DNA from: Candidatus Woesearchaeota archaeon
GTDB lineage: Archaea; Nanobdellota; Nanobdellia; Pacearchaeales; GW2011-AR1
Length of the DNA: 39,940 nt
Reading direction: 5' to 3'
Assembly: GCA_964545215.1 (NCBI GenBank)
Contig: CAZJEV010000001.1
Location: 1-39,940 of the forward strand
In this document: piece by piece, positions 8,054 to 31,957 of the stretch
Numbering within the stretch: position 1 is the stretch's first letter
Layout of the letters: each line of letters starts with the position of its first letter
Program-made: the position numbers and the translations under genes
Notes under the pieces: model-generated
Databases searched by the model: none
The model's input: the letters and a program-made list of their open reading frames with translations, nothing else
What the model was told of the DNA's origin: nothing

Positions 8054-8063
8054 TATTTATATG

Positions 8064-8127: not shown

Positions 8128-8133
8128 GCATGC

Positions 8134-12499: not shown

Positions 12500-12663
12500 C
12501 TGATTTAATAAACACATTATAGAAGGAAGTAAATGGATTAAATTTACCTTTCATATTCACGTCTATTGGGACATTTCGCAGGAAAAATTAAAACTAACTT
12601 CTTTCTAAATAAGATTGTAAAGCTTGTTAAGTAAATGAGCAAATAGCTCATAATGGAGAAAAA

Positions 12664-13806: not shown

Positions 13807-13843
13807 TGGAAGTAGAAAGGATATATTTTGTAAATACTTATAA

Positions 13844-14857: not shown

Positions 14858-14878
14858 GATTTATAATAGACCTTTGTA

Positions 14879-14886
14879 TATTTAAA
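14879..14886 (-). promoter_or_regulatory. TATA-like octamer, 29 nt upstream of ATG 14857 (minus)
   Basis: The minus-sense sequence reads GATTTAAATATAC. Confidence 0.45.
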
Positions 14887-15099
14887 TCTTTCGGTTGTTT
14901 ACTACTATAAAGATACAACACATAACAGGCTCCTGCCCGTAAGTATAAAGCATAGACGATAAGATATTTTTCTCCTATTTTTATCGTCGAGCTAAAAATA
15001 TTAATTATCCGTAGTTTTATATATTTTCGAGAATCTAATAAAACAGGCATAAAAATTACCGACGAGAAAATTATTGCCTTATTCCATAGGACGTATCTT

Positions 15100-16104
15100 T
15101 CAATATAGTCCACGACGAGCTTTATACTTACGCCTGCCCAATAATTCATCCAAATACAGCAAGCATTCTTCTCCGTTATCTCTTTTTCTTATTTCAGCTT
15201 TTACTGCTTCCAATCCCCTTTCTATTAATTGCTTAGTTTCTTCTTGCGAGGTGTTAAATAATCTTGATATATAATAAACTGATTGCGGTTTTTTAGACCT
15301 AACTTTTATTCCCTTATCTTCTATTCCTATTCTTCTTAATAAAATCTCTTTTATTTTCCAGGAATCATACAATTCCTTTGAGCTAATTTCTATTGCACCT
15401 TTTAGTTCTCCTCTTAGTTGGCTTTCCTTTATGTATTTTTCACTTTCCGGTATATGCCTTTCTTCATGTAAATATTTTAAACACTCAGCTTTATCCATTT
15501 TTATTAAATTCCCTCTTAACATTTCCAAAGCTCTAGATTCTATTTCTCTTGCTGCTTGCCTAGTTAAGCCTATTGTCTTGCCAATTTCTGCATAAGTTTT
15601 AGGTTCTCCTTCAAAGTATCTTGATTTCAAGACTCTTTGATAACGTTCTGGGAGGGTTGCCAAAGCTTCATAAAGAATCTTTAATTTTTCATCTAAAAGC
15701 TCTTTTTTTACAATGTCTTCACTCGGGCTGCTATCTGTTAATAATCTCTGCTCAAGATTTGAAGAAAGAGCAATTAGCTTTTCTTCTGGAATTACTGCTT
15801 CATGGACAAACTTTCCTCTGGGTTTAAACTGCTTTAGACTTTCTGGAAATGCGTCTTCCTCATAAATAAATGAACCTTTATCCCGATAAAAGTCACATAT
15901 TTTTTTCTGCATTTTGGGAGGAGGGTATCTTTTCATGCTTTCGTATTCTAATAGAGTTTGGTATCCTAAGCCAATCTGCATTGCAGCTTCTGTTGCTGAA
16001 AGGCCCAATTTCTCCCTTACTCTGACTAAAAGAGCATTTTTTAATCTTGATTCTAATCTAATAGCAATTCCTTCCTGAGTTTTACAGTATTGAGTTTCCT
16101 GCAT
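15100..16104 (-). CDS. Multi-HTH regulator: N-terminal XRE-like HTH plus sigma-70 region-4-like domain
   Basis: LGLSATEAAMQIGLGYQTLLEYE is XRE-like. LPERYQRVLKSRYFEGEPKTYAEIGKTIGLTRQAAREIESRALEMLR (nt 15514-15669) has the sigma-70 region 4 pattern. No region 2 is seen. Confidence 0.7.
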   Translation of the reverse strand: MQETQYCKTQEGIAIRLESRLKNALLVRVREKLGLSATEAAMQIGLGYQTLLEYESMKRYPPPKMQKKICDFYRDKGSFIYEEDAFPESLKQFKPRGKFVHEAVIPEEKLIALSSNLEQRLLTDSSPSEDIVKKELLDEKLKILYEALATLPERYQRVLKSRYFEGEPKTYAEIGKTIGLTRQAAREIESRALEMLRGNLIKMDKAECLKYLHEERHIPESEKYIKESQLRGELKGAIEISSKELYDSWKIKEILLRRIGIEDKGIKVRSKKPQSVYYISRLFNTSQEETKQLIERGLEAVKAEIRKRDNGEECLLYLDELLGRRKYKARRGLY

Positions 16105-16160
16105 AAAAAATTTGGTAGGAATACATTATTAAAGCTTTCTAAATATGAATATCAGAAAAT

Positions 16161-16168
16161 CTTAAATA
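16161..16168 (+). promoter_or_regulatory. TATA-like octamer, 29 nt upstream of ATG 16190
   Basis: CTTAAATA in the divergent spacer shared with 15100-16104. Confidence 0.45.
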
Positions 16169-16189
16169 CAAGAACATCTATAGATTTAA

Positions 16190-16717
16190 ATGGATAACGC
16201 AGAAGCCTTATTAAAAAATTCTGAGTTGTATAGAGAGTTTTGTGCTGAAAGAGAGGAAATTCTTAAACATAAATGGCTTGAATCAGAAAAAGCAGGCTAT
16301 GATATTGGCTTTGAGAAAGCTCTTACTGATTGGATAGTTAAGTATAGGGCAAAATGGAGAAAGAATAGGATGCAATTAAAGGCCTTAGAAGATATTAGAA
16401 AGGATGGCCTTCAGATTTTAATTTTTGATAATCTTATTGAATTTAACAGAAATAATCCTTTATCTCATGAAAATTATAGGCAAAGAATAGGCCTTGAAGC
16501 AATTTCAGGAGTATACGTTGTTGAGCAAAATAAATTAAAAAGGATGGAAGGAGAATCTTCTTCAGAAGTAATTGCGGGTGTATTTGCTGATGAATATAAA
16601 GATGGACAGCAAAATTACAGACTGCACTTAGATAAAGGCATGGAATTAAAAGTAAGGCTTAGTGAAAATTGCCTTGAGATAATTGAGCCTGACAATGCGC
16701 ATCAGTTTGCTGCATAA
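16190..16717 (+). CDS. Hypothetical 175-aa protein
   Basis: The N-terminal segment ILKHKWLESEKAGYDIGFEKALTDWIVKY looks like a conserved module, but I cannot name the family. Confidence 0.55.
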   Translation: MDNAEALLKNSELYREFCAEREEILKHKWLESEKAGYDIGFEKALTDWIVKYRAKWRKNRMQLKALEDIRKDGLQILIFDNLIEFNRNNPLSHENYRQRIGLEAISGVYVVEQNKLKRMEGESSSEVIAGVFADEYKDGQQNYRLHLDKGMELKVRLSENCLEIIEPDNAHQFAA

Positions 16718-16740
16718 ATTTTTAGTTGTGAAACGCGCTT

Positions 16741-16764
16741 AATGTCAAGAACCATACATTAAAC
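16741..16764 (+). repeat. Third copy of the TCAAGAACCATAC motif seen upstream of tuf
   Basis: AATGTCAAGAACCATACATTAAAC matches the reverse complement of 8165-8188 at 22 of 24 positions, with an 18-nt exact core. Confidence 0.6.
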
Positions 16765-16930
16765 AGGCTGTCTCACAATCCAAATGATTCCTAGAACAAT
16801 TAATTCAAAAAATAAATTCTTATTATTTTTAGATATTTTACCTCGCATAATCCAAATCTTCTTCAGATTATGAGCTATAGAATGGTATCATATGTCTATG
16901 TCCTACACTATAATTTACAGAGCAATGATC

Positions 16931-16938
16931 TTTATATA
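16931..16938 (+). promoter_or_regulatory. TATA-like octamer, 29 nt upstream of ATG 16960
   Basis: TTTATATA. It supports 16960 (signal-peptide Met) rather than 16870 as the start. Confidence 0.45.
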
Positions 16939-16959
16939 GACTTTTTTCATGTCCTACAA

Positions 16960-18342
16960 ATGAGAAAAACCTGGATTTATACAATAATATCTATTTTTTT
17001 ATTAACGACTTTTATTAATCTAACTAATGCAACAGAAGTTGAGTGTCTTGAGCTAATAAAGGGACACAACAGCTTGGCTGAGAAAAGGATAAATATTGTC
17101 CTTGTAGGATTCAATTATTCTTCCCTTGATTCTTTTTTATCGATTGCAAATAAGGTTATTGAAGGAAATCATGGACTCTTTTCTTTTGAACCTTTTAAGT
17201 CCGATAAGTGCAGGTTTAATATCTGGTATGTGAATCAGATTGGCGCTGCAAAGGATATGCAAATGAACAGAAATGGAGTAATTTTAGGCAAGCAAAGTTA
17301 TGAGCTTGCAGATGTCTGCACTAAAAAGTTGGGTTATTTCAGAGAGGAAACTACCCCCGCCAACCTATATTTCAGCGACAGGATGTTTACTTTCTTCATA
17401 ATAAACAAGCCTAGAGGAGGTTCTGCATACAGTACTCTTCAGGCTGGCAATCGTGAGTTCTTAAGAAATGAGCCGTTTAATCAGTATTATTTTGGATTAA
17501 AGGGCGCTCTTGTCCATATTACTGAAGAAGGAAAGCCTTTTATTTCTCCAAGAACAGGAACGAGAATAGATTTTGGAACTGATGGATGGGAATCTCATTT
17601 TTATGAACAAGTTTTGAGCTTTAGTCATGAATTTGGACACGCATTTACTACACCATATGGATATGAAGAATATAACCCTCACAATTACAAGTATTTGATA
17701 GATGAATATACATCAATAAGTCAGTCAAAAATTTTTGAAGGAGATAAAGAGCATTCAAATTGCTTTATTGGGACTATCAACGAATGCATGTCTGAAAAAA
17801 ACAAGGTTTTTGGAGATTTAATTGGTAATGGATGTGGGAAGGATGGAGTAATTGATTGTTGCACTAATAATCCTTTTAAAATAAGCTCTGGCGCCAGAGC
17901 ATGCACATCATGTCCAGAATGCCATGAAGATCCAGATTACGATCTTGAAATATCCTGCTACGAAGGATGCCGTTATAAGACAGGTTCCTTTAGGGGGACA
18001 TTCAACTCCTTAATGAGAAAACATGCTTCTGAACCAAAATCATTTGGATTAGTGAATGAAAGAATTCTTCTTGAGCAGATGAATTTCCTTCTTCCTCTTG
18101 AGGATAAAAGAGAATGCATTTCCAAACTAAGAGTTCCTAAGTTTGAACCTATAACATTACCTAAGTTTGAGCCTGCAACTAATGTAATTCAAAATCCAGA
18201 TCCTGAAAGAAACAATCCAGATCCTGAAAGAAACATTAAAGATAATAATTTACAACACCCTGAAAAAGATTCCGAGACTTCAAGAGAGAGAAATAGAGAT
18301 ATTTTTAAACATTTGCAGGCTAAAAGTAATTATGGCAATTAA
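16960..18342 (+). CDS. Secreted HExxH zinc metallopeptidase, M64 (IgA-peptidase)-like, Cys-rich, with C-terminal tandem repeats
   Basis: Signal peptide MRKTWIYTIISIFLLTTFINLTNA. HEFGHAF (17626-17640) is followed by ..EEY.. and ..IDEY, as in the M64 pattern HEFGHSF..DEY. Many Cys residues lie in 17750-17970. Confidence 0.6.
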   Translation: MRKTWIYTIISIFLLTTFINLTNATEVECLELIKGHNSLAEKRINIVLVGFNYSSLDSFLSIANKVIEGNHGLFSFEPFKSDKCRFNIWYVNQIGAAKDMQMNRNGVILGKQSYELADVCTKKLGYFREETTPANLYFSDRMFTFFIINKPRGGSAYSTLQAGNREFLRNEPFNQYYFGLKGALVHITEEGKPFISPRTGTRIDFGTDGWESHFYEQVLSFSHEFGHAFTTPYGYEEYNPHNYKYLIDEYTSISQSKIFEGDKEHSNCFIGTINECMSEKNKVFGDLIGNGCGKDGVIDCCTNNPFKISSGARACTSCPECHEDPDYDLEISCYEGCRYKTGSFRGTFNSLMRKHASEPKSFGLVNERILLEQMNFLLPLEDKRECISKLRVPKFEPITLPKFEPATNVIQNPDPERNNPDPERNIKDNNLQHPEKDSETSRERNRDIFKHLQAKSNYGN

Positions 18343-19123
18343 ATTTGGCCCTGCTGGGCTTGGGCCTGTAAAGACAGCTGAAGAAACTTTGGAAAAATAT
18401 CATAAGCTCGGCTTAAAAGCATGTGAGATAGCATTTACTTACAGCATTTACATTAAAAATCCGGAGGATGCCAAAAGGATCGGCAAGAAAGCCATGGAGC
18501 TTGGAATTGATTTAACGATTCATGCTCCGTATTGGCTTAATTTAAATTCTCTTGAAAAAGAAAAAAGAGATGCAAGCAAAAAAAGAATTATTGATTGTTG
18601 TGCAGTTGGAGAACTCCTAGGAGTAAAATTAGTTGTTTTTCATCCTGGATATTATACAGATGGAGGAAAAACAGCTGAAAATAAGAAGCAAAGCTATCAG
18701 ATAATTAAACAGGAAATAGAAGAAATAATGAATGAGATAAAAAAGAGAAAATGGAAAATAAAAATTGCTGCTGAAACAATGGGAAGAGTTAATGTTTTCG
18801 GGAGTGTTAAAGAAATCTCAAGACTGCATAAAGAAACTGGATGTGCATTTTGCATTGATTTTGCGCATATCTTGGCAAGAGAAAAAAAAGTTGATTATAA
18901 AAAGATCAAGGAGTTGTTTCCGGAAAAAGAATGGCATGTTCATTTTTCAGGAATTGTTTATGGAGATAAAGGAGAAAAATATCATATTTCTACACCCAAA
19001 GAAGCGTGGAAAGAATTGCTTAAAAATCTACCAAAAGATAAGGAAATAAGAATAATTAACGAAAGCCCGACTCTTGTGCAAGATAGCGTTGAAGGGCTGG
19101 AAATGTGGAAGAAGATGAAATGA
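18332..19123 (+). CDS. AP endonuclease family 2 / endonuclease IV-like TIM-barrel protein
   Basis: IHAPYWLNL, VVFHPGYY, ETMG, CIDFAHIL and HVHFSG match the Nfo metal-ligand blocks. It overlaps the upstream gene by 11 nt. Confidence 0.75.
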   Translation: MAIKFGPAGLGPVKTAEETLEKYHKLGLKACEIAFTYSIYIKNPEDAKRIGKKAMELGIDLTIHAPYWLNLNSLEKEKRDASKKRIIDCCAVGELLGVKLVVFHPGYYTDGGKTAENKKQSYQIIKQEIEEIMNEIKKRKWKIKIAAETMGRVNVFGSVKEISRLHKETGCAFCIDFAHILAREKKVDYKKIKELFPEKEWHVHFSGIVYGDKGEKYHISTPKEAWKELLKNLPKDKEIRIINESPTLVQDSVEGLEMWKKMK

Positions 19124-19126
19124 TTA

Positions 19127-19303
19127 TTAATTATATGCTATTGCAGCAGGAATGTCTTCCCTTTTTACACCATATTCCTGCTCAATTTCTTCATAAGTCA
19201 TGCCGCCTATTAAGCTGCCAAGTATAACTTCTATAGGCACTCTTGTACCTTTAATAACAGGCTTTCCATGCATTATCTTTGAATCAATTACTATTCTTTC
19301 CAT
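19127..19303 (-). CDS. DUF433-type small HTH protein (antitoxin-like)
   Basis: MERIVIDSKIMHGKPVIKGTRVPIEVILGSL..GMTYEEIEQEY has the canonical DUF433 pattern. The track ORF start (19399) is probably too far upstream. Confidence 0.65.
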   Translation of the reverse strand: MERIVIDSKIMHGKPVIKGTRVPIEVILGSLIGGMTYEEIEQEYGVKREDIPAAIAYN

Positions 19304-19328
19304 GTCTGGAAAAAATGCAATTATAAAT

Positions 19329-19661
19329 TCATCTTCGTAATTTATCAATGAATTTATTAACGTTATTATAAGGCTTATTAATTTTGATATTTTTCTCATT
19401 CTTTTTTATTTCTAAATAATTATCTTTCTTCGCTTCACTTTTATTATTTATCTTCAAATTCCTTTGTCTTTCTTTATCTATTAAAATGAGTTTTCTTTGT
19501 GCGCTTTCAGGGGCAATTCTGCACAAATTGAGAACGGAAAGAATTTTCTCCATGATTTCCTCATAGCTTTCCCTTTTATAAGAACGAAGATTTTCTATTC
19601 TTGATTTAGTTGCCTTTGAAATTTTGATTGTTGTTATATCCTTGTTAAATCCGGAGTCCAT
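19329..19661 (-). CDS. RHH/antitoxin-like protein with low-complexity Lys/Asn tail
   Basis: TTIKISKATKSRIENLRSYKRESYEEIMEKIL follows the archaeal antitoxin-like pattern. Confidence 0.5.
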   Translation of the reverse strand: MDSGFNKDITTIKISKATKSRIENLRSYKRESYEEIMEKILSVLNLCRIAPESAQRKLILIDKERQRNLKINNKSEAKKDNYLEIKKNEKNIKINKPYNNVNKFIDKLRR

Positions 19662-19662
19662 T

Positions 19663-19684
19663 AAGGTATACTTAAGTATACCTT
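19663..19684. promoter_or_regulatory. Perfect 22-bp palindrome abutting the start codon (candidate operator)
   Basis: AAGGTATACTTAAGTATACCTT starts 2 nt upstream of the ATG at 19661. Its distal end overlaps the minus-sense ATTAAAAA box (19683-19690). Confidence 0.5.
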
Positions 19685-19736
19685 TTTAATTCTTTCGTAA
19701 CTATAAAATAACTATATTTATGTTATCACCATAAAG

Positions 19737-19744
19737 TTTAAATA
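19737..19744 (+). promoter_or_regulatory. TATA-box-like element upstream of the surface-protein gene
   Basis: TTTAAATA, 49 nt upstream of ATG 19786. Confidence 0.35.
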
Positions 19745-19785
19745 TGGTTAATTATTAAGAATTTTAATTAAATTTATTTAAAACC

Positions 19786-21039
19786 ATGGAATCAAAAAAT
19801 ATTTTGGTTTTACTTGTTGCAGTACTTGCGCTGGTTTTTTTATTGACTGGTGTAAGCGCTACGCATGAGAACATACAAGGACTTGTGCATAATTTTGCAA
19901 AGATTACAAGTGTTGAAGTTAATGGCGTTGAAAGTGCCGGAGCATTGAGCGGCGCCGCTATTAATGTTGGGGCTTTTGCAGGAGAAACTCTTCCTGTAAG
20001 AGTTACATTCCAAGCACTTGATAATGCGAGCGATGTTAGGCTAAAAGTGTGGATTTCTGGCGAAGAAAGCAATGCGGCTTCTTCTAATAGGTTTGATGTA
20101 ATAACAGGAAGTACATATAGTAGACTTGTTGCTGTACCTATACCTTTTGACATTGAGCCTGAAGAAGAAATGAGATTATATATCTCATTGGAAAGCAGAG
20201 ATGGAGGATTGCCTACTGCCGACATTGTAAGAATAAAAGCTCAGAGAGAATCTTATATTGTAGAGATTCTTGATGCAAACATGCCTACTGAAATAAGAGC
20301 TGGAGAAAATCTTGTTGTTGATGTTGTTTTGAAGAACAGAGGCAGACAAGAAGCTGAAGACACTTTTGTAAGAGCTAAAATACCTACATTAGGTGTTGAA
20401 GGAAGAGCTTACTTTGGAGATTTATCGCCTGTAGATCAAGACGACCCAGATAAGGAAGACTCTGCTCAAAGAAGGATTGTTTTAAACATCCCAAGAAGCG
20501 CTAAAGCCGGAGTTTATGTTGTTGAGCTTGAAGCTTATAACAGCGATTCTGCCACTACATTGAGCAAAAAAGTCTCAATAGCTGGCGCATCAGAAGCAGA
20601 CAGCGCTGTCATTTCCAGATCTGCTTCAAAGACATTTGGAGTAGGAGAAAAGGAAACATACAGCCTTACCTTGGTAAATTCTGGAGACAGAGTTAGAATC
20701 TATGAACTGGTTGGGGAGAGTTCTAGCGAGAATCTGGAAGTCAGCGTAGATGATTCAGTCGTAGTAGTTCCAGCAGGAGAAAGCAAGACTGTTGATGTAA
20801 ATGCCAGAGCCTTAAAAGCGGGCAAATATACATTTGCAGTAAATGTAATCTCTAATGGCGACCTTGTCAAGCAAGAAAGCTTTACAGCAAATGTTGATGG
20901 CGGCAAAAGGACAGCAGGAAATACAACTGTATTATTGACAGTTATTCTTGCAATAATTTTTGTTGTGCTTCTCGTAGTGCTTATTGTGTTGCTAACAAGA
21001 AAACCTGAAAAAGAAGAATTCGGAGAAAGCTACTACTAA
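19786..21039 (+). CDS. Cell-surface (S-layer/CARDB-like) protein with signal peptide and C-terminal TM anchor
   Basis: N-terminal signal ILVLLVAVLALVFLLTGVSA, Ig-like repeats (..VVDVVLKNRGRQEAEDTFVRAKIP..), a C-terminal TM (TVLLTVILAIIFVVLLVVLIVLL) and a short charged tail. T-runs follow the stop. Confidence 0.7.
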   Translation: MESKNILVLLVAVLALVFLLTGVSATHENIQGLVHNFAKITSVEVNGVESAGALSGAAINVGAFAGETLPVRVTFQALDNASDVRLKVWISGEESNAASSNRFDVITGSTYSRLVAVPIPFDIEPEEEMRLYISLESRDGGLPTADIVRIKAQRESYIVEILDANMPTEIRAGENLVVDVVLKNRGRQEAEDTFVRAKIPTLGVEGRAYFGDLSPVDQDDPDKEDSAQRRIVLNIPRSAKAGVYVVELEAYNSDSATTLSKKVSIAGASEADSAVISRSASKTFGVGEKETYSLTLVNSGDRVRIYELVGESSSENLEVSVDDSVVVVPAGESKTVDVNARALKAGKYTFAVNVISNGDLVKQESFTANVDGGKRTAGNTTVLLTVILAIIFVVLLVVLIVLLTRKPEKEEFGESYY

Positions 21040-21124
21040 AGTTAATTAATTTTTTTATTTTTTTATTTAACTTTGTAGCTTCCCGATTCATAATTGTTAA
21101 ATGCTAAGGATAATATAGAAGAAT

Positions 21125-21361
21125 ATGGATGAAAAAGAAAGACAAAATGCTTATGATAGAATGATAGCTCAATATGATAATTATGCTTCTATAATTGAAG
21201 CCCACTCTCAAACAAGAGGATTAACTTTAAGTGAACAACAGAGAGGATTATTAAAGATAGTTTTTGATGAGGAATTTAAAGAACCACATGTTAAATTTAT
21301 GCATCAATCTTATGGCAAAAGAAAAGCCACTAGAACATATATAACTTATGAGAGTTTATAG
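21125..21361 (+). CDS. Hypothetical 78-aa protein
   Basis: ORF only. Confidence 0.35.
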   Translation: MDEKERQNAYDRMIAQYDNYASIIEAHSQTRGLTLSEQQRGLLKIVFDEEFKEPHVKFMHQSYGKRKATRTYITYESL

Positions 21362-21497
21362 AAATAGAGAATTTTTTAAGTTTAGAAATGCAGGGAAAAA
21401 CAGCTATCATGTATTAGAAGATTATTTAGTGAAAAAGGGTTTAATAGATAATCCTAAAGAAGGCAAGTTTTAAATATACCTTTTTGCTATAAAAGGG

Positions 21498-21734
21498 ATG
21501 GCAAAAAGAGGCTCAAGAAAATTATTTATTCCGGTAAAGGTTCCGAATTTTTGGTCTAGATTTTTTAGGGTTATAGGTGATATATCCCTAGTTGTAAGCC
21601 TCTTGTTTATCTTTATAGGACTAGGTCAGGTTGGATTTGACCTTTTCAGCTCTGCAGAATTCTGGACTGTAATAAACAGCTTCTGGCTTTTCTCGTTCCT
21701 GCTTTTTTATTTTTCTGAGAGGTTGAAAAAATAA
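21498..21734 (+). CDS. Small membrane protein (2 TM)
   Basis: ORF with TTTAAATA 29 nt upstream and two hydrophobic segments. Confidence 0.45.
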   Translation: MAKRGSRKLFIPVKVPNFWSRFFRVIGDISLVVSLLFIFIGLGQVGFDLFSSAEFWTVINSFWLFSFLLFYFSERLKK

Positions 21735-21827
21735 ACAGATATATAAATTAATATAATAGTTTTCTAAGTTTTTATATAGCTAAAGTTACCGTAGATTACG
21801 AATTAAGGCTATGAAAATATAATAAAT

Positions 21828-21835
21828 ATTAAATA
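21828..21835 (+). promoter_or_regulatory. TATA-like octamer, 29 nt upstream of smc ATG 21857
   Basis: ATTAAATA. Confidence 0.45.
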
Positions 21836-21856
21836 GCCACTATTCTTTTTGAGATA

Positions 21857-24772
21857 ATGGTTTACATTAAAAAGATGGTGATGTCTGGATTCAAAAGCTT
21901 TGCCAGAAGGACAGAAATTCTTTTTGACAGGGAAGTTAATGTTATTTTGGGGCCTAATGGAAGTGGAAAGACTAACCTATCGGATGCCATTTGCTTTGTC
22001 CTTGGCAGATTAAGCATAAAATCAATCAGGGCTGCAAAAGCTAAAAACCTGCTTTTCATGGGAAGCAAATACATAAAACCGGTAAAAGAAGCTGTTGTTG
22101 AGTTAGTTTTTGACAATACTGACAGAACCTTTGCAGTAGACAAAGATGAAGTTCATCTAATACGCATAGCAAGAAATAATGGGCAGGGAGTTTATAAAAT
22201 TAATGGCGAGTTAAAAACAAGAACAGAAGTTATTGAAATGCTTGCGCAAGCAGGAATTGATCCATATGGCTTTAATATAATACAGCAGGGGCAAATTCAA
22301 TCAATTGTGATAATGCATTCAGAAGACAGAAGAAAAATAATAGAAGAAGTTGCTGGGATAAGCATTTATGAATCAAGAAAAGAAAAAAGCCTTCATGAAT
22401 TAGAAAAGACAGATGAAAGGCTGAAAGAAATATCCGCAATCTTAAGAGAGAGGAGTAGTTATTTGAGAAATCTGGAAAAAGAAAGAAGCCAGGCCCTGCG
22501 ATTTAAAGAGCTTGAATTAACAGGAAAGAGGTGCAGGGCATCTATTTTGAATAAGAAAATTGAGGAAAAAAAGAAAGAGCTTGCTTCTATAATTAAATCT
22601 ATTCAGGAAAAAAGCGATGAAAAAGACAAGCTGAAAAATGAAGCTGAAAAATTGCAGAATGAAATAGAAAAATTAAATGCTGGAATTTTGGAAATTAATA
22701 AGAAAATTCAGCAGGCTTCTGGATTTGAGCAGGAAAATCTGCGCAATCAGATTGCAAATTTAAAAGCTGAATTGGAAGGATTAAAAGTAAGAAGAGAGAA
22801 TTATGAAAACAGGAGAAGTGAAGTTGAATTAAGAATTAGAGAGATGGAAAGGAGCATTCCTGAACTGGAAAATGAGATAAAGGAATTGAAAAAAGAAAGT
22901 CCTTTAATGGCGAAAAAAGCGCAGGAATTGCGCAAGAAAAAGCAGGAATTTGAGGAAATAGGGGAGCAGAGAAATAATCTCATGTCAGTTAAAAGCGGGC
23001 TGCTTTCCTTAAAAGCTTTGATTCAGGACAGGGAAAAACAGCTTTCTAAAACAAAAGCTAATTCAGATAGGATATTAAAAGATATTGAAAGCTACTCTGC
23101 AAATCTGGAATGTAAAAATGAAGAAGAAGGTAATAATAAAATAAAGAAATTAAAGAGTGAGGTAATTGAGAAAGAAAAATTATTAGGAGAGCTAAGAAAC
23201 AAGGAATTAAAAAATGAAAAAAATATTGGAATTTCTGAAGCTGAGATTGAAAAAGCCAAGTCAATTGAATCAAGGGTAAGGGAGATTGATATATGCCCTT
23301 TATGCCAAAGCAAAATTACACAAGAACATATTAAGCATGTTTTGGATGATGCAGATAAAAAGATTGAGAAAGCGCAGGAAATTTTTAATAAAGCAAGAGA
23401 AGAAATATTAAAGATAAAAGAGCAGGAAAAGAAAATACATGATGAAATTGTTTCAATAAAAAATATTATTTCTATAACTGAAAATGAGATGATAAAGCAC
23501 ACGGCAATTGAAGAAAAAAAGAAGCAATTAAAAACAGAGGTTGAAAATGAGCATGAGCTTGAAAATGAAATAAAGAAAATAAAAGAAAAGCGGAGAGCTT
23601 TTGAAATTAAAGTTCAGGGATTGCCAGGAATAGAGGAAAAATATGACGCAAAAATGCTTGAAATTGAGGAAATTTCATCAAGAACAGAGGAAGATGCTGA
23701 CACAACTATTCTTTACAAGGAAAGAGAGCTGGAAAACATAAGAAATGTAATAAAAAGAGGAAATAAGGATTTGCAGGACATAAATAATGAGATTAAGAAT
23801 CTTTTAATTAATATTGAGAGCAGAGCAAGAGCGTTGGCAGAGAGGGAAAAGCAGGAGCAGGAGTTAAATAGCAGGTTTAAAAAAATGTTTGAAACCAGGG
23901 ATTCTTTTCAGAGAGAAATCCAGGAAAAAAGCCTTGAATTGTCTGAAGTGCAGGGAGAGATAAGACAGTATGATGAGCAGGTTAATTATCTGAAAATTGG
24001 AAAAGCAAAGCTTGATGCGGAAAAAGAAGTTCTTGATATGGAAATGCAGGAATTTTCTGGATTGGAATTAATATCTGGAAGCTTAGACGCTTTGGAAGAA
24101 AGGCTAAGAAAAACGCAGGAAGCATTAATTCAAATAGGAAGCATTAATATGAGGGCTTTGGAAGTTTATGAGCAGGTTAAAAAAGAGTATGATATTGTGC
24201 AGGAAAAGGTAAATATTCTTGAAAGGGAAAAAGCAGAGATCCTGAAAATTATTGAGGAAATTGACAAGAAAAAAACAAGGACTTTTATGAAAACATTTAA
24301 GGCAATTAATGAGCTTTTTTCTCAGAACTTTTTAAAGCTTTCTGCAAAAGGCACTGCATTTTTAGAATTAGAAAATGAAGAGGATATTTTTGCGGGAGGA
24401 GTTAATATAGTTGTTAAATTGGCCAAGGGGAAATATTTTGATGTCACATCCTTATCAGGTGGAGAGCAGACTTTAGTTGCTTTGTCATTGCTTTTTGCAA
24501 TTCAGGAGCATAAACCGTATCACTTTTATATTTTTGATGAAATTGATGCTGCGCTTGACAAGAGAAATTCAGAGAGATTGGCTGCTTTGTTACATAAATA
24601 TATGAAATACGGGCAGTATATTATAATTACGCACAATGACGCTATAATAATGGAGTCTAATATTCTTTATGGAGTAAGCATGCATGATGGCGTTTCTAAG
24701 ATTTTGAGCCTGAAGGTCGGAGATGAAGAAAAGAAAGAAGAAGGTATCACTACTGAAAACAAGGCTGCATAA
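21857..24772 (+). CDS. smc: SMC-family ATPase with central CxxC (Rad50-like zinc hook) instead of a hinge
   Basis: SMC head motifs are present: GFKSFA, GPNGSGKTN, QQGQI, EEVAGISIYESRK, LSGGEQTLVALSLLFAIQ, FYIFDEIDAALD. The middle is continuous coiled-coil-like sequence with CPLC at aa 480-483 of 971 (23294-23305). Confidence 0.9.
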   Translation: MVYIKKMVMSGFKSFARRTEILFDREVNVILGPNGSGKTNLSDAICFVLGRLSIKSIRAAKAKNLLFMGSKYIKPVKEAVVELVFDNTDRTFAVDKDEVHLIRIARNNGQGVYKINGELKTRTEVIEMLAQAGIDPYGFNIIQQGQIQSIVIMHSEDRRKIIEEVAGISIYESRKEKSLHELEKTDERLKEISAILRERSSYLRNLEKERSQALRFKELELTGKRCRASILNKKIEEKKKELASIIKSIQEKSDEKDKLKNEAEKLQNEIEKLNAGILEINKKIQQASGFEQENLRNQIANLKAELEGLKVRRENYENRRSEVELRIREMERSIPELENEIKELKKESPLMAKKAQELRKKKQEFEEIGEQRNNLMSVKSGLLSLKALIQDREKQLSKTKANSDRILKDIESYSANLECKNEEEGNNKIKKLKSEVIEKEKLLGELRNKELKNEKNIGISEAEIEKAKSIESRVREIDICPLCQSKITQEHIKHVLDDADKKIEKAQEIFNKAREEILKIKEQEKKIHDEIVSIKNIISITENEMIKHTAIEEKKKQLKTEVENEHELENEIKKIKEKRRAFEIKVQGLPGIEEKYDAKMLEIEEISSRTEEDADTTILYKERELENIRNVIKRGNKDLQDINNEIKNLLINIESRARALAEREKQEQELNSRFKKMFETRDSFQREIQEKSLELSEVQGEIRQYDEQVNYLKIGKAKLDAEKEVLDMEMQEFSGLELISGSLDALEERLRKTQEALIQIGSINMRALEVYEQVKKEYDIVQEKVNILEREKAEILKIIEEIDKKKTRTFMKTFKAINELFSQNFLKLSAKGTAFLELENEEDIFAGGVNIVVKLAKGKYFDVTSLSGGEQTLVALSLLFAIQEHKPYHFYIFDEIDAALDKRNSERLAALLHKYMKYGQYIIITHNDAIIMESNILYGVSMHDGVSKILSLKVGDEEKKEEGITTENKAA
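24702..24727 (+). repeat. 26-bp direct repeat, copy 1 (inside smc 3' end)
   Basis: TTTTGAGCCTGAAGGTCGGAGATGAA, identical to 25796-25821. Confidence 0.95.
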
Positions 24773-25872: not shown

Positions 25873-26100
25873 AACCTATTTTTTTAAACTTAGGATGCTC
25901 TAATTAAACATCCATTTTTGCCTTTTCCATGTTAATCTTATGTACATCAGGATGTACTTATTTACAAATCTTGTGGTCATTGCAATGTACATATCTTTTA
26001 ACTTTTAGATTCTCTGAAAGAATTGGAAAAGACTTAAGACAATCGGCAAGATAAAACTGCGAATTATATATAATTTTTAAGTAGTTACATTTAGAAAAAC

Positions 26101-26108
26101 TTATAAAG
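26101..26108 (+). promoter_or_regulatory. TATA-like element about 31 nt upstream of ATG 26132
   Basis: (C)TTATAAAG, the same geometry as at other gene starts in the window. Confidence 0.4.
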
Positions 26109-26131
26109 TGTATATCTTACTACTTTTTACT

Positions 26132-26269
26132 ATGAAGAAGAAACTTAGTATAAGCATTGAAGAGAAAACTATAGATAGTTCAGATTGCTTTATAGTAAAA
26201 GGTCTGTTTAGAAATAAAAGTCATCTTATTGAATTTGCACTAAATAAATTTTTAAAGAGAATAAAATGA
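26132..26269 (+). CDS. 45-aa RHH/CopG-like protein (below the ORF-track size cutoff)
   Basis: MKKKLSISIEEKTIDSSDCFIVKGLFRNKSHLIEFALNKFLKRIK has a beta-strand plus two helices with the ..S.LIE.AL..FL.. pattern. Its TGA overlaps the next ATG (ATGA). Confidence 0.55.
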   Translation: MKKKLSISIEEKTIDSSDCFIVKGLFRNKSHLIEFALNKFLKRIK

Positions 26270-28512
26270 GAGAAGCTAAAGAAAAATTTGATGGTTTAAT
26301 AGAAAGAATAAAATCCGGAAACCCAGTAAAATTCGGAGAAGCAGAAAGAGTATTTGCTGAAGCCTTTTTGTCACATTTCTTGAAGAATCTTGAAAGAAAC
26401 AGGCAGAGAGTGATAGATGCTATAAAGAAACAAGCAAGAGAAAGAGATGACGCATATTATGATGAAGGCGAAGAGCGGGAAGAATATGATGTTTCCAATG
26501 AAGATATTGCAAGGCATGAAATAGAAGGGATAAGAACTGTTGCTAGTGCTTTAGGTGTAAGGCCAAAAATATCACAACTAAATAAATATACAAGTTCTGC
26601 AATAAAATTAGGAGATTGGAATCTTTTAAAAGATATTCTCGGATTGTCTGAAGAAGGTAAGTTAGAAAGAGGCGCTTTAGAGGAAGTCGCTGTAAGCCAG
26701 CTTACTTACGGAACAAGAAGATCTTACAAAGAACTAAAAGAACAATTCCCAGACCTAGAATTAAGCCAGCAAAAATTATCCGATGAAGAATCTAAATTAA
26801 TTTATAAAGAGATTGTTGAGCAGCTCTATATGCTTGATAGAGATTTAAGAAATTCACAAGGGTTAGATAATATATCAAATATTGTTTCCAGAAGAGGCTT
26901 GAAGGCCATAATAGAATCAGGCTTAACAATTCCTGTTTTAGCATCTATTGAAGCTTTAAGCCCTTCTGTAGAGACTTCTACTCGTTTGTCTGATTTTGCT
27001 AAAAACGCAGACTATCAAGAAGGAAGAGAGTTGCAAAGAAGGTTCTATCATGGCCTTTCTTCATTGCAAGATTTAGAAAATGGTAAGGAAATCCTTGAGC
27101 ATGCGGCCTCTATTTCAAATAATGCAAGAAATTTAGCAAAAGTGTTGTCAGCAATATCCTTAGTAAGTAGAAGTTCAGATTTTCAATATCATTTTTCCTT
27201 AACTTCAGTAGAAAAAACTCTAAGAAACCTTAAGCTGCAGCTTGTAGATGGAGGCCTAAGAAAAATAGGCCTCACAGATCAAAATCTGGAAAAGTATTTA
27301 GAAAGAGTGGATAAAGATGAGAGATTTAGGAAAGTAGGAGACATTCTGACAACTCTTTCCAGCTATTCTCATTACCAAAATCCTAAACAGATAGGGTTGA
27401 TTAGAGAAATAATAGAGGCAGAATTGGAAGATAGATTTCCAGAATGGAGATATACTCATAATCTTGCATCAGAGCAATTAGCTGTTCTTGAAGATAGAAT
27501 TTCTGCATGGAAGGAAAATAGAAGAGTCACAAGATTGGTTGGAGAGCTAGATGCTTTAAAATCTCATGTAGATGCGGTTAGAGATTTATTTCCAAAGTTA
27601 CAGGAAAGTTATGGGCAGCATTACAAAATCACTCTAGATAGAGAAGAAGTAAAAGACTTGGAGAATAAAATCCGGAAAAATGAAGAGGCTTTAAGGCAAG
27701 GATTGCCTAAAAGTGAAGCCCGAGACTTAGGATACGAAACAGGATTGCTAAGGGAAAGAATTGCTTATACTAAATTACTAAAGGGGATTAAGGAGTTATC
27801 TACTGAAAGTTATGCCCAAATTTTAGCGATTGCACAAAATATATCTAAAAGAAGATCAAGAAATCCTCTTTTTGAAACTGCGCTATGGATAAAAGATACT
27901 TTAGACCAGCCAGTATATAGGGAAGCAAGAAGGATAATTGTAGCAGAGACGGATGACTTAGAAGATATGCTAAGAATGGGCGAGATACCTGTACCACACT
28001 GCCAGAATTGGAAGAATGATAATAATTTGAATAGGTCTTTATTGAGCTTTCCGGCTGATGCAAATAAGAAATTATACCACTTCGTAAATGGCGATGGCAA
28101 ACCATTTGGAATGAGTTTAATTAGATTAGTAGGCAATGGAAATATGCCTACATTATTAGTAGAAAACATTTACTCTAATGAATGGAGCGAGGACTATGGC
28201 ACTGCTTTTATCGGAAGTTTAGCAGATAAGGCCCTAGCAATTTATGAAGAAGCTGGAAAACCAGTAGCTATTGCAAGCCCCATACACTCTGGACATGAAG
28301 CTCATGGAAGAAAGAATATTCAAGTTTTAAACGCATTGAAGAGATTTGCTCAAAAATATAAAATTGAATTATATGAAGAAGATATTAGCATTAAAGCCGC
28401 TAGAAGTAAAAATACACACGAATATTGGGATTGCGGCTTCGGATTAGTAGAAAGCGGAAATGGAATTGAGCTTCCAGTAAAATATGTTCTATTTGGAGGT
28501 TCTAATGGATAA
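26266..28512 (+). CDS. 748-aa protein of unknown function (helical N-terminal region, Cys/His-bearing C-terminal domain)
   Basis: Long uninterrupted ORF with normal composition and no antisense alternative of comparable length. Motifs VPHCQNW (Cys579, 28000-28002), HSGHEAHG and YWDCGFG. No family recognised. Confidence 0.75.
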   Translation: MREAKEKFDGLIERIKSGNPVKFGEAERVFAEAFLSHFLKNLERNRQRVIDAIKKQARERDDAYYDEGEEREEYDVSNEDIARHEIEGIRTVASALGVRPKISQLNKYTSSAIKLGDWNLLKDILGLSEEGKLERGALEEVAVSQLTYGTRRSYKELKEQFPDLELSQQKLSDEESKLIYKEIVEQLYMLDRDLRNSQGLDNISNIVSRRGLKAIIESGLTIPVLASIEALSPSVETSTRLSDFAKNADYQEGRELQRRFYHGLSSLQDLENGKEILEHAASISNNARNLAKVLSAISLVSRSSDFQYHFSLTSVEKTLRNLKLQLVDGGLRKIGLTDQNLEKYLERVDKDERFRKVGDILTTLSSYSHYQNPKQIGLIREIIEAELEDRFPEWRYTHNLASEQLAVLEDRISAWKENRRVTRLVGELDALKSHVDAVRDLFPKLQESYGQHYKITLDREEVKDLENKIRKNEEALRQGLPKSEARDLGYETGLLRERIAYTKLLKGIKELSTESYAQILAIAQNISKRRSRNPLFETALWIKDTLDQPVYREARRIIVAETDDLEDMLRMGEIPVPHCQNWKNDNNLNRSLLSFPADANKKLYHFVNGDGKPFGMSLIRLVGNGNMPTLLVENIYSNEWSEDYGTAFIGSLADKALAIYEEAGKPVAIASPIHSGHEAHGRKNIQVLNALKRFAQKYKIELYEEDISIKAARSKNTHEYWDCGFGLVESGNGIELPVKYVLFGGSNG

Positions 28513-29428
28513 AGCATTTGTCTATCATGGCAAAGTTGAAAGCCTTGCAGAACAAGTTGAAGAATATAGAGATAGATTAAATAAAAGATACTTAGAAATA
28601 TTTGGCGAAAAGAATTATCAAAAGCTAGCTAGAGCTTCTCAGACTATTTTAACTCCTGAGAGCTTTATTAATACAAAGGATGAATTGGAGAAAATATCAG
28701 GGACCAAATTCACAGGCAAATCGCAGTGCAGTAAACTTATACTCATGGTAAGTCCAGATTTTGCTCTTAATCCAGATAGAACTTTTAAGCAAAAAAAGGT
28801 AAGAATTGCCCCTGGATTTTATGTTTCAGACGAGAGTTTCAAATATTCTGGAGCATCCGCATACTCTGAAAAGATTATTGCAACCTATGTTCATGAATTT
28901 AATCATTTTGCCTGGTTAGCCTTGCAAAAAACTCCTTTTTATGTCACAGAATCAACTTTATCCCGTGAAATTGGTTCTACAAGAACAGACGAAGACATTC
29001 GCAATCTTATTGAAAGATTAGAAATAGAAACAGCAAGGCCTTTAGAGCAAAAAAGAGAGATTTTAACAACAAGTCTTACCGCCTACATGATGCATGAGGG
29101 ATTTGAGCAAGCAAATAGGATTTTAGATAATTCTGTTTTAAGCAGTATAGGAATTAATGCTTCTATTCCTTATAGAAGACAAAAAAAGAAGTTTGCTCTA
29201 GGATATTCTTCTGCATTAAGGATGGCATTTGTTTTTCCTTTAGAAGGAGATTATTATTGGAATTTGTCTGATAAGCAAGCAATTAATAATTTCTTAGATT
29301 GGGAGGATTATCTCAATGTAATAATAAATGCACCGTTTATTCAACAAATTGTTAATTCAGTAAAATCTTTAGAAATTCAATTATTGCCCTTGACTGTATT
29401 AAGAAAAGAAATAGAAACTCAACAATGA
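28505..29428 (+). CDS. Cytoplasmic HExxH protein (putative metallopeptidase) of unknown family
   Basis: HEFNH at 28892-28906, with no signal peptide or TM. ATG 28505 overlaps the upstream stop (28510-28512) by 8 nt. ATG 28484 is the alternative start. Confidence 0.7.
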   Translation: MDKAFVYHGKVESLAEQVEEYRDRLNKRYLEIFGEKNYQKLARASQTILTPESFINTKDELEKISGTKFTGKSQCSKLILMVSPDFALNPDRTFKQKKVRIAPGFYVSDESFKYSGASAYSEKIIATYVHEFNHFAWLALQKTPFYVTESTLSREIGSTRTDEDIRNLIERLEIETARPLEQKREILTTSLTAYMMHEGFEQANRILDNSVLSSIGINASIPYRRQKKKFALGYSSALRMAFVFPLEGDYYWNLSDKQAINNFLDWEDYLNVIINAPFIQQIVNSVKSLEIQLLPLTVLRKEIETQQ

Positions 29429-29838
29429 ACCAAGAAAAATATTTAGAGCAATTAATGCAAAAAAGTGATTATTGTAAGTGTCAAGATTTAGCAGAGCTTT
29501 TTGAAAAAAGAAAAGCTGCCAGAAAATTGGAAATCAAATGTAAGTTCTTTAAAAGAAATGCAGACCTTAAAAATCCTCAGCAGGGAAATCAGGCTTTTCT
29601 TAGAGACTATCAAATAGAAGTAGGTAATTTAAAAAGCGCTGTGCAAGATTACTATAAATCGCTTTATCAACATGCAGCTGAGAAGAAAGTCTATTTTGCT
29701 TTGCATGATGCCATAAAAGAAAGAGTGGTTAAGTTTTTACCCTTAGAGAAGACACAGAGACTCTTAAGAAACTCTAATCCTATTATTTCTATCCATTGCC
29801 ATACCTGCAAACAGCAGATTGATGTTGCCCATCGCTAA
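29425..29838 (+). CDS. 137-aa protein with N-terminal CxC and C-terminal CxxC
   Basis: ATGA overlap with the upstream gene. CKC near the N-terminus and HCHTC near the C-terminus form a possible Zn site. Confidence 0.6.
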   Translation: MNQEKYLEQLMQKSDYCKCQDLAELFEKRKAARKLEIKCKFFKRNADLKNPQQGNQAFLRDYQIEVGNLKSAVQDYYKSLYQHAAEKKVYFALHDAIKERVVKFLPLEKTQRLLRNSNPIISIHCHTCKQQIDVAHR

Positions 29839-30212
29839 ACTCTTCTAGAATATTCATCATCTAAAATAAGGTCTTTAAGAATAATTCTGCCGTCTTTTTC
29901 TCTATTATAAATAATTCTGTCTCCTTTTGAGACTCGAATTGACCAACCACCAGTGCGTAATTTCTCTTCTCTGCCAAGACCTTTACTAATCTTATTAATT
30001 GCTCTTTTAATTGCATCTTCGTCGTATCCTCTGATTGCACGTTCAAAATGCTGTGTTCTTATGATATTTGGATTTTCAAGCTCGTGATGTGTAAGCTGTC
30101 TTTGCTTGTTGTATTCTCTACGCTCTTCTGCTTCAAGATGCCTGCGATATGATTTATTCTCTATAATACCACCGCAGCTTGCTGCGGGGATAAAGCTATA
30201 AGTTTGTAGAAC
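29835..30212 (-). pseudogene. RelE/ParE-family toxin-like reading frame without any ATG/GTG/TTG start
   Basis: The minus-strand frame is open for 125 codons. Its C-terminal about 78 aa read NIIRTQHFERAIRGYDEDAIKRAINKISKGLGREEKLRTGGWSIRVSKGDRIIYNREKDGRIILKDLILDDEYSRRV, matching the RelE/ParE pattern (..G.WSIRV..DRIIY..). It is absent from the ORF track because it has no canonical start, and no antitoxin gene lies upstream. Confidence 0.55.
30169..30189. repeat. GC-rich palindrome 1 (CCaCCGCAGC-TT-GCTGCGGGG)
   Basis: A perfect 7+2+7 core at 30172-30187, extended by CC/GG with one bulged A. It shares the AGCTTGCT centre with palindrome 2. Confidence 0.8.
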
Positions 30213-30265
30213 CTAGCGTTTAGATCGTCACATAAAGTTTTCAAGATAAAATCTAGTTTTCTTTT

Positions 30266-30577
30266 CTAGATGCCCCATAGCTTGCTATGGGGAGTTTCAC
30301 TATATGCAATTTTATCTTTTTCTGATAGGTTTTCCCATTTGTGCTTTCCAATCATATGGCTTAATTTTGACTCACGGGATTCATAAGCTTCTGATGAGCG
30401 ATAAGATAAAAGTCCTATGCCAACAGCAATAAAAACAATGCCTAATATTGAGCTGACTCCCTTTCCAATTTTCTCCGCAATAACAAATCCTGTAATAGAA
30501 GTATATGCATTGAGAAGAAAAAATATGCCTAAAATGACAGATAGAATTCCTAATACTTTCGTAGTTTTTATATGCAT
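30266..30577 (-). CDS. Small membrane protein (2 TM)
   Basis: Two hydrophobic segments (VLGILSVILGIFFLL, ILGIVFIAVGIGLL). The C-terminal 8 codons are encoded by palindrome 2. Confidence 0.5.
   Translation of the reverse strand: MHIKTTKVLGILSVILGIFFLLNAYTSITGFVIAEKIGKGVSSILGIVFIAVGIGLLSYRSSEAYESRESKLSHMIGKHKWENLSEKDKIAYSETPHSKLWGI
30273..30292. repeat. GC-rich palindrome 2 (CCCCATAGC-TT-GCTATGGGG)
   Basis: A perfect 9+2+9 palindrome that forms the last codons of the 30266-30577 ORF. Confidence 0.8.
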
Positions 30578-31310: not shown

Positions 31311-31583
31311 ATGAGTATATATAAAGAAAAAGAAATAATACATTATCCTAGTTTAAGAACAATGTTAATGGTAGAAAAAACTTTGAGAGAGGCTGATACT
31401 ATGATAGACAGAGAAGAGCTAAAAAGAAGATTACCCACTAAGATTATGCATCAAACGCTAAATTTAATATTGAGATATTTTGAAGAAAGGGGGATGATAA
31501 TCGACAGCCATAAAGGCATTTTATGGATCTATAATCCTAGTCCTAAATTGAAAAAAGCAATTGAAAATGCTAGGGAGATATAA
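31311..31583 (+). CDS. 90-aa putative antitoxin / wHTH-like protein
   Basis: It lies directly upstream of, and overlaps by 1 nt, a RelE-like gene. TTTATATA lies 29 nt upstream. Confidence 0.5.
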   Translation: MSIYKEKEIIHYPSLRTMLMVEKTLREADTMIDREELKRRLPTKIMHQTLNLILRYFEERGMIIDSHKGILWIYNPSPKLKKAIENAREI

Positions 31584-31957
31584 TGTTTCAAGGAAAAGAG
31601 GTGGTTGTAAAACTTTCTGAAGAGGCTGACCAAGTTTATCAAGAGTTGAATAAAATCGTTGGCGAAGAAAAGCTAAAAGGAATTGATAGTTCTTTTCATC
31701 AGACTTTATTAAGAAGCATTAATAGAGTTAGGGACTTGTTAAAACAAAATCCTTTTGCTGGCGATCAGGTAAAGAAGAAGCAAATTCCTCTAAAGTATAT
31801 TCAAAAATTTGATGTAGATAATGCTTGGAGAATTGAATTAGCTGACAGATGGAAATTAGTTTATACTATTACTGGAAATCAAATTGAAATAATCACATTT
31901 ATTATGGATATTTTTGATCATAAGGATTATGATAAGGTCTTTGGATATAAACATTAA
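31583..31957 (+). CDS. RelE/YoeB-like toxin
   Basis: ..LKQNPFAGDQV..NAWRIELADRWKLVYTITGNQIEIITFIMDIFDHKDYDKVFG fits the RelE-superfamily C-terminal pattern (W/YR..L...YRLVY.., H..Y). Confidence 0.65.
   Translation: MFQGKEVVVKLSEEADQVYQELNKIVGEEKLKGIDSSFHQTLLRSINRVRDLLKQNPFAGDQVKKKQIPLKYIQKFDVDNAWRIELADRWKLVYTITGNQIEIITFIMDIFDHKDYDKVFGYKH

Follow-up and report, generated by a model that had tools for sequence, protein, structure and literature searches.

The region between positions 26,100 and 29,838 of a 39,940-nucleotide (nt) stretch of contig CAZJEV010000001.1 (assembly GCA_964545215.1, Candidatus Woesearchaeota archaeon), hereafter the window, carries a 45-amino-acid (aa) ribbon-helix-helix (RHH) gene, a 748-aa open reading frame (ORF), a gene for a 307-aa protein with an HExxH motif and a gene for a 137-aa Cys/His-rich protein. 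A reading made from the sequence alone (the sequence-only reading) had taken these genes for one coupled cassette of the kind found in defence or addiction modules. Our analysis favours, with a probability of roughly 0.7, a different account, in which a mosaic operon headed by an RHH gene occupies a lineage-specific, recombination-prone site in the genome of a DPANN relative of Woesearchaeota/Pacearchaeota. According to the sequence comparisons, the 748-aa ORF arose by an in-frame deletion that fused two adjoining genes, named here A and B, and the window is a recombinant of two cassette types.

The homologues of the 748-aa protein formed two sets, eleven B proteins of ~790 aa and a single A protein of 824 aa (P0013), and the B set matched only residues ~166-748, with identities of 45-63%. 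In BLASTP comparisons, residues 1-179 aligned with residues 1-178 of P0013 at 56% identity, and residues 166-744 with the B protein P0002 at 63% identity over 579 aa; tblastn matched the A part to the A genes of loci L001, L008, L013, L014, L020 and L036. The A part (codons 1-170, 26266-26775, plus strand) corresponds to the N-terminal domain of the A family, and the B core (codons ~166-748, 26761-28512, plus strand) to residues 219-799 of full-length B; this core consists of a helical scaffold and, at its C-terminus, an alpha/beta domain. In P0013's own contig (L003), A and B form two distinct genes side by side. Counting L003, they do so in ten or more DPANN loci besides the window, the order being A then B, tightly adjacent, in L001/2/15, L003/4, L005-8, L013, L014, L016-18, L020 and L036, with lengths of 531-1133 aa for A and ~790 aa for B. 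The L003 genes downstream of B (372 and 103 aa) were considered as homologues of the third and fourth genes of the block and rejected.

An origin of A and B as tandem paralogues that recombined at equivalent positions was ruled out by hhalign (probability 0.1) and, since they are not paralogues, the junction would represent an illegitimate deletion. It falls at about codons 166-170 (26761-26775), in a segment left unstructured by the AlphaFold2 (AF2) model, which is of low confidence in the A part (residues 126-171 have a predicted local distance difference test score, pLDDT, below 50). The fusion lost ~650 aa of A and the first ~218 aa of B, including the strongly conserved MPGMG..QRLEQRLELRQ..PFRTDGE..QVSQYE N-terminus. 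Every full-length B opens with the Gln/Leu-rich peptide MPGMGMxLGxxQRLEQRLELRQ, followed by PFRTDGE..QVSQYE (e.g., L003 2540-3200), both absent from the window protein; the Gln/Leu-rich peptide is similar in style to region I of sigma-54. As both halves have their nearest relative in L003, the fusion appears to be derived. A second, independent fusion was found in P0139, a 304-aa protein made of A residues 1-255 and the last 60 aa of B, and its different breakpoints indicate that A-B deletions recur. The B profile match of the window protein covers positions 211-794, and the B core retains 120 of the 124 B-invariant positions, within the range of intact members, suggesting that the deletion is recent or tolerated. 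With the body of A and the conserved N-terminus of B missing, the chimera is most probably a copy that has been crippled or is decaying; the large scaffold or sensor proposed in the sequence-only reading is a deletion derivative and not a native protein.

Co-occurrence was checked in 38 loci fetched through homologues of B, of the HExxH gene (314) and of the Cys/His-rich gene (137). None of the 38 held all four genes together, an outcome that the sequence-only reading had itself named as counting against it, and the idea of a co-conserved block was not sustained; what did recur were its sub-combinations (A-B with 137, 314 with 137, and RHH with either), in the arrangements RHH-A-B, RHH-A-B-137, RHH-314-137 and RHH-311-Bc-136. 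The HExxH protein, which had been tied to the other three, was found without them in more distant genomes. L010/L011 read RHH-314-139 followed by a convergent ~200-aa gene, L036/L037 carry a decayed RHH gene, A (1102 aa), B (790 aa) and 139, again followed by the convergent gene, and L038 has only the 139-aa gene and the convergent gene. In L009, which is syntenic with the window (SMC at 58% identity), the order is RHH, 311, a 137-aa B remnant and 136, and then the convergent gene, while the window reads RHH-A::B-307-137 and ends in a disrupted copy of it.

What is left of the B C-terminus in L009 is the middle ORF of 137 aa, which shows 76% identity to the B of L036 and 43% to that of the window, and it keeps the 6-nt spacer that precedes the 137-type gene in L036. 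Because this remnant is nearer to the L036 B and shares its spacer, L009 and the window are probably independent recombinants between RHH-A-B-137 and RHH-314-137 alleles. In the window, the junction between B and the 307-aa gene (AATGGATAA) is the RHH-to-314 junction of L010, and L003 and L013 have RHH-to-A junctions similar to that of the window. Repeats flanking the modules were sought as a cause of recombination, and only short AT-rich chance matches were obtained.

The block is headed by a promoter that both cassette types share. A TATA-like cttataaa element (26101-26108) lies ~24 nt 5' of the ATG at 26132, its TATA box is conserved in six other loci, and together with an upstream AGTAGTTACA motif it aligns with L009, L010, L013, L020 and L036, so that motif and box are kept in RHH-A-B and RHH-314 loci alike. 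An imperfect inverted repeat (26079-26093 / 26111-26125; promoter region 26079-26125, plus strand) surrounds the box and is a candidate RHH operator. The small ORF that follows (26132-26269, plus strand), described earlier as CopG/RHH-like from its pattern, belongs to the RHH family by way of its homologues: in the family alignment (A7), five of the seven members matched Pfam RHH_1 (PF01402; best E-value 3.6e-5), with weaker matches to RHH_3, RHH_8 and ParD. Homologues of the gene stand first in RHH-A-B as well as in RHH-314-137 loci. The family resembles CopG/Arc-type regulators in size (45-48 aa), in its strand-helix-helix pattern, in its position as first gene behind its own promoter and in the RHH_1 matches of those five homologues; it differs in that the window copy falls below detection and the operator is a candidate only. 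In L036 (196-312), the RHH gene that heads an intact A-B-139 locus looks degenerate, with its second helix lost (...FRNKGPLTEEGRNT*), and in L013 the A gene is split into ORFs of 483 and 718 aa; both are further signs of erosion of this gene set.

The ORFs, their overlaps and the TATA box were all present at the positions given by the sequence-only reading, as were the motifs VPHCQNW (with Cys579), HSGHEAHG, YWDCGFG and HEFNH and the CxC and CxxC pairs. The four genes are co-oriented and overlapping: the TGA of the RHH gene overlaps the ATG of the 748-aa ORF (ATGA, 26266-26269), whose own stop (28510-28512) overlaps the ATG at 28505 within ATGGATAA, and a further ATGA (29425-29428) joins the 307-aa and 137-aa genes. 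Two starts had been offered for the third gene, and that at 28505, giving 307 aa, was preferred over 28484, since the homologues all open with MD(E/K)KA..VYHG and the NCBI protein has 307 aa. The coupling indicates an operon, but it is not exceptional, because 11 of the 34 same-strand neighbour pairs in the contig overlap.

The absence of a recognisable family, noted at the outset for these proteins, was borne out, as no curated family covers the three larger ones. Scans of the four proteins and of the A and B homologues against Pfam, NCBIfam, PADLOC and PHROGs gave no meaningful match; with the PADLOC-DB 2.0 hidden Markov models the best result for the four proteins was MTase_II (E-value 0.027), which is not meaningful, and the check for a known defence system came back with no PADLOC model matched. 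The four proteins matched no PDB sequence, and PDB sequence and profile searches with family alignments A1, A2, A5, A7 and A8 returned designed helical repeats or noise only. Neither the B family nor the 307-aa family was found in IMG/VR, which leaves a viral origin unsupported.

An exhaustive profile search showed B to be a superfamily of 278 representative clusters (50% identity) from DPANN archaea and at least one bacterium of the candidate phyla radiation (CPR; a Patescibacteria protein). Its conserved core spans profile positions ~270-795, and longer forms reach 1000-1780 aa, one of them being the CPR protein. In a scan of genome representatives, B, including a distant clade named B2, was present in 15 of 185,579 species, nearly all of them labelled Woesearchaeota, Pacearchaeota or Nanoarchaeota. 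The AF2 model of the 748-aa protein (pLDDT 73, good from residue ~180) consists of a long helical scaffold and a C-terminal alpha/beta domain, and the topology of residues 555-743, b1-a1-a2-b2-b3-b4-a3-b5-a4-b6-b7, is the canonical order of the GCN5-related N-acetyltransferases (GNAT). In Foldseek searches against PDB, the top 50 matches were all GNAT acetyltransferases (NatD, SpeG, Naa50 and others), each of them weak (E-values 0.016-0.17, probability 0.89-1.0, TM-target 0.35-0.52). Residues ~554-748 (27925-28512, plus strand) are thus predicted to form a GNAT-like fold domain. No GNAT appeared in the PDB profile searches for B.

Across the B superfamily G572, P575, C579 (codon 28000-28002), A656, S714 and Y720 are invariant, and D563, Q580, W582, N589, D598, N600, K601, E633, Y636, K655, N716, E719, D722 and G726 are near-invariant. 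At b4-a3, where GNATs carry the Q/RxxGxG/A motif that binds the acyl-CoA pyrophosphate, proteins of the window-type clade read E-D-Y-G-x-A, in which G645 and A647 are near-invariant. To judge from conservation, the superfamily-wide residues look like a Cys-centred active site and not like the standard GNAT motif set. Among the candidate catalytic residues proposed earlier, Cys579 held up as invariant, but HSGHEAHG lies in a dispensable segment and was ruled out as a catalytic motif, as P0009-P0012 lack that segment.

Clade B2 shares 25% identity with window-type B. Its genes lie between those for elongation factors EF-2 and EF-1alpha, with S10 nearby, in L024 (1955-4318) and L027 (8001-10391), and between YGR210/Obg-like GTPase genes in L023 (2396-4759), neighbourhoods that hint at a link between the B superfamily and translation. 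The genes downstream of B vary and are unrelated between loci. In L001, a 430-kb Woesearchaeota contig, the RHH-A-B genes are flanked on one side by six tandem paralogues (262-358 aa) and on the other by five paralogues of 336-388 aa with faint WD40 matches and by 507-aa and 664-aa proteins of no recognised kind; none of the genes in these flanks (1-6231 and 12520-22382) has a Pfam family.

The 307-aa protein (28505-29428, plus strand) had seven relatives in a set of 5.8 billion proteins, and no match was found in Pfam, NCBIfam, PDB sequences or any known peptidase family. The HExxH motif (HEFNH, 28892-28906) and the Cys residues of the neighbouring 137-aa protein, pointed out in the sequence-only reading, proved invariant in their respective families. 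In family A2, YVHEFxHF, E201 (29105-29107) and D208 are invariant in all eight members, and YVHEFxHF is also kept in L029 and L034. The AF2 model is confident (pLDDT 88.7, pTM 0.90) and places HExxH in a helix at 125-140 and E201 and D208 in the next long helix (180-215), yet Foldseek returned no fold match (best E-value 0.6 in PDB and 0.37 in BFVD). As in gluzincins, the thermolysin-like clan with HExxH and a downstream Glu, the invariant HExxH sits in a long helix preceded by beta-strands, and the model puts the invariant Glu201 and Asp208, candidates for a third metal ligand, in the following long helix; unlike gluzincins, the protein has neither a Pfam peptidase family nor a PDB or BFVD fold neighbour despite its confident model, and its Glu-to-Asp spacing is 7, the spacing in thermolysin being 4. 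The 307-aa protein is thus a candidate for a new metallohydrolase fold.

Distant homologues of the 307-aa protein (26-36% identity) lack the RHH and 137-aa partners; one follows rpl1-rpl10-rpl12 in L034, another follows small RNA polymerase (RNAP)-like genes in L012, and the remainder are in unrelated contexts. The packed L012 operon (4229-8240) comprises a 325-aa Rpb2_6-like and a 472-aa Rpb1_1-like gene, both of unusually small size, together with a 178-aa gene and the 312-aa HExxH homologue, and may be a non-canonical RNAP gene set. Beyond it, another gene shares its first 17 residues with the start of the Rpb2-like gene, and an upstream 602-aa gene is homologous to the 664-aa gene downstream of A-B in L001.

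The 137-aa gene (29425-29838, plus strand) encodes a putative Zn-binding protein with four relatives in the same protein set, and its family (A5) has seven invariant Cys/His residues (C17, C19, C39, H94, H124, C125 and C128). It adjoins 314 in L009, L010 and L011, B in L036 and L037, and neither in L038, its most constant neighbour being the convergent ~200-aa gene (29838-30577, minus strand in the window), which has two transmembrane helices and a weak YoeB/RelE-like tail (Pfam YoeB_toxin, E-value 0.045, below the family cut-off). Intact copies of this gene, of 199, 203 and 198 aa, occur in L009, L010 and L038, respectively, and in L036 the contig stops short of its 5' end. In the window, its homology is split across two frames by a 143-nt insertion, and what had been described there as a decayed RelE/ParE turned out to be its 3' half; a 61-aa ORF at 29861-30046 (minus strand) was rejected as a gene, being an alternative frame of the disrupted one. 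The insertion (~30159-30301) separates codons ...KIAY and NKSYRRH... and bears two related palindromic hairpins near its ends, CCCCATAGCAAGCTATGGGG and CCCCGCAGCAAGCTGCGGTGG, whose stems differ by compensatory changes (zero matches expected by chance; RNA fold z-score -2.2). It looks MITE-like (miniature inverted-repeat transposable element); Rfam gave nothing for the insertion or for the whole window, and no copy was found in the 38 related loci.

The setting among toxin-antitoxin (TA)-type genes was confirmed. The flanks hold an MNT nucleotidyltransferase and a weak YoeB-like pair, and also LigD phosphoesterase and LigD Prim-Pol genes and one for an AAA_14/DUF4143 ATPase; the HEPN partner of MNT had no Pfam match. 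Homologues of the weak YoeB-like toxin pair (90 and 124 aa; window 31311-31957) directly flank B genes in L014 and L025, which suggests that B genes tend toward TA-rich variable regions.

A working model can be proposed for the mosaic operon. The conserved TATA promoter and the 45-aa RHH gene head the block, related genomes carry alternative cargoes behind the same kind of RHH gene, and in the model the RHH dimer would bind around the TATA box and autoregulate one short-leader or leaderless four-gene transcript. The B core would be a transferase-type enzyme whose helical scaffold selects the substrate. The translation apparatus is a plausible source of that substrate, in view of the predicted GNAT-like fold and of the B2 genes that lie near those for EF-2, EF-1alpha or Obg-like GTPases. 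The 307-aa protein would act as a Zn hydrolase of gluzincin type, its candidate site residues being HExxH, E201 and D208, and the 137-aa protein as a small Zn-binding partner that may belong functionally with the convergent transmembrane/YoeB-like gene and not with the upstream genes. We hold the structural and evolutionary account of the locus at about the confidence given above, and any specific biochemical function as tentative, more doubtful than not even for the best candidate.

Several observations weigh against this account. The window's own 45-aa RHH copy gave no Pfam match, and the inverted repeat of its promoter has no conserved counterpart in L009, L010 or L036; operon status and RHH autoregulation were deduced from gene overlaps and promoter conservation. 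The fused ORF is intact and its core undegraded, so it could still be functional and not decaying. The contig belongs to a metagenome-assembled genome (MAG), and the A::B junction and the others were read from its assembled sequence. As to the order of events, A-B may have been inserted here or lost in the relatives. With regard to the enzyme, the GNAT assignment comes from a single AF2 model built from 13 sequences (pLDDT 73) with Foldseek E-values of at least 0.016, no Acetyltransf_* profile matched the window protein or 48 diverse superfamily members at E-values up to 1, and Gly645 of the Q/RxxGxG/A-like site is not conserved across the 48-member superfamily alignment. The translation link was drawn from the neighbourhoods of three of the five distant B2 loci.

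Among the other explanations, we consider it rather unlikely that B and the HExxH protein are DPANN-specific housekeeping factors tied to translation or transcription and that the window contains eroding, redundant paralogous copies with no conflict function. The position of B2 between EF-2 and EF-1alpha (L024, L027) or Obg-like GTPase genes (L023), the 307-aa homologues after rpl1-rpl10-rpl12 (L034) and RNAP-like genes (L012), the sharing of the B core with at least one CPR bacterium, and the deletions and remnants in the window, L009 and P0139 would all fit. However, the window-type clade (B1) is patchy, with 15 of 185,579 species representatives even when B2 is counted; it is always linked to the variable A (531-1133 aa) and often to RHH, with unrelated downstream neighbours, and the 40-kb window contains neither a second B nor a second 307-aa gene. 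Moreover, DPANN genomes are small and rich in housekeeping genes, so adjacency to them is partly expected. Less probable, in our judgement, is a cassette-exchange site of an undescribed DPANN conflict or host-interaction system with effector modules swapped between conserved flanks. The left flank would be the RHH gene and its promoter, the right flank the 137-aa Zn protein and the convergent transmembrane/YoeB-like gene, and the swapped modules either A-B, whose B core would act on the translation machinery as a new kind of GNAT-fold transferase that depends on Cys, or the new-fold HExxH hydrolase; the window and L009 would then be natural recombinants caught mid-exchange. A defence or addiction role of the locus is possible as a hypothesis.

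The single purpose-built four-gene system of the sequence-only reading, with a repressor, a sensor or scaffold, a metallopeptidase effector and a Zn protein, now seems improbable. Its genes are indeed co-oriented and overlapping behind one conserved promoter in a TA-rich locus (in L014 and L025, B lies beside a homologue of the TA pair at window 31311-31957), three of its four proteins are outside any curated family, and its parts recur in sub-combinations and decay repeatedly, as is typical of conflict genes. Yet no other locus has the four genes together, the supposed sensor is a deletion chimera, PADLOC gave no match, neither B nor the 307-aa family was found in IMG/VR, and the distant homologues are placed elsewhere, those of the 307-aa protein alone or beside ribosomal-stalk or RNAP-like genes and those of B in the EF-2/EF-1alpha cluster. 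More improbable again is a polymorphic-toxin-like locus in which the B C-terminus is a toxin domain, the 137-aa protein its immunity partner, and incoming cassettes leave orphan C-terminal fragments behind. It would account for the 137-type gene directly after the B C-terminal domain in L036/L037, for the orphan B fragment of L009 with its preserved L036-type junction and for the alternative cargoes between conserved flanks, but B has no secretion signal, transmembrane segment or known delivery domain, its C-terminal domain is the most conserved part of the protein and not the most variable, and the 137-aa gene is missing from most B loci and present without B in L010 and L038. There is, finally, very little chance that the A::B fusion is an artefact of assembly or binning: the window is a MAG contig and its protein a singleton cluster, but A and B share no sequence similarity able to collapse an assembly, the junction is in frame within one uninterrupted 748-aa ORF, and the independent fusion P0139 occurs elsewhere with other breakpoints.

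The nearest named systems are the GNAT/RHH type II TA modules (TacAT, AtaRT and KacAT), the toxins of which are small, single-domain GNATs (PMC9177977, PMC6698736). As in those modules, an RHH gene lies upstream of a protein with a GNAT-like fold in one operon, among TA modules, and a translation-related target is plausible. In contrast to these two-gene operons, in which a small GNAT toxin follows a DUF1778-type RHH antitoxin, the GNAT-like domain is the tail of a large, helical, multi-domain protein (748-800 aa; ~790 aa for B and 748 aa for the fusion), RHH and B are normally separated by a large A gene, the 45-aa RHH protein consists of the DNA-binding fold alone, without a DUF1778 match or a neutralising tail, no acetyltransferase, Pfam TA or PADLOC profile matches, and the B core is dominated by an invariant Cys that is not typical of those toxins. 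Membership in this group was discarded on toxin size and architecture, antitoxin type and profile matches. With Rhs/CDI polymorphic toxins the locus shares alternative cassettes between conserved flanks, recurrent deletion and fusion derivatives and, in L009, a displaced 3' fragment of the large gene beside a small downstream gene; it differs in having no delivery domain or secretion signal, in its conserved C-terminal domain and in a small downstream gene that is not universally linked. RimI/J/L and TmcA/NAT10 also combine a GNAT-like catalytic fold with a larger recognition scaffold, as predicted for B, and the B2 genes are linked to translation genes, but no sequence similarity, helicase/P-loop module or tRNA-binding domain was detected in B.

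The novelty of the region is at the level of families, namely the B superfamily and the HExxH fold, and not of a new four-gene system. If the mosaic reading is true, the 748-aa protein is not a native architecture for annotation or structure mining, and the units worth study are the RHH-A-B pair, the 307-aa family and the 137-aa family. The locus would be a concrete case of cassette recombination and decay in DPANN genomes. The B superfamily, which has no Pfam coverage, is a tractable part of the "dark matter" shared by ultra-small episymbionts, and its possible role as a transferase acting on the translation apparatus is testable.

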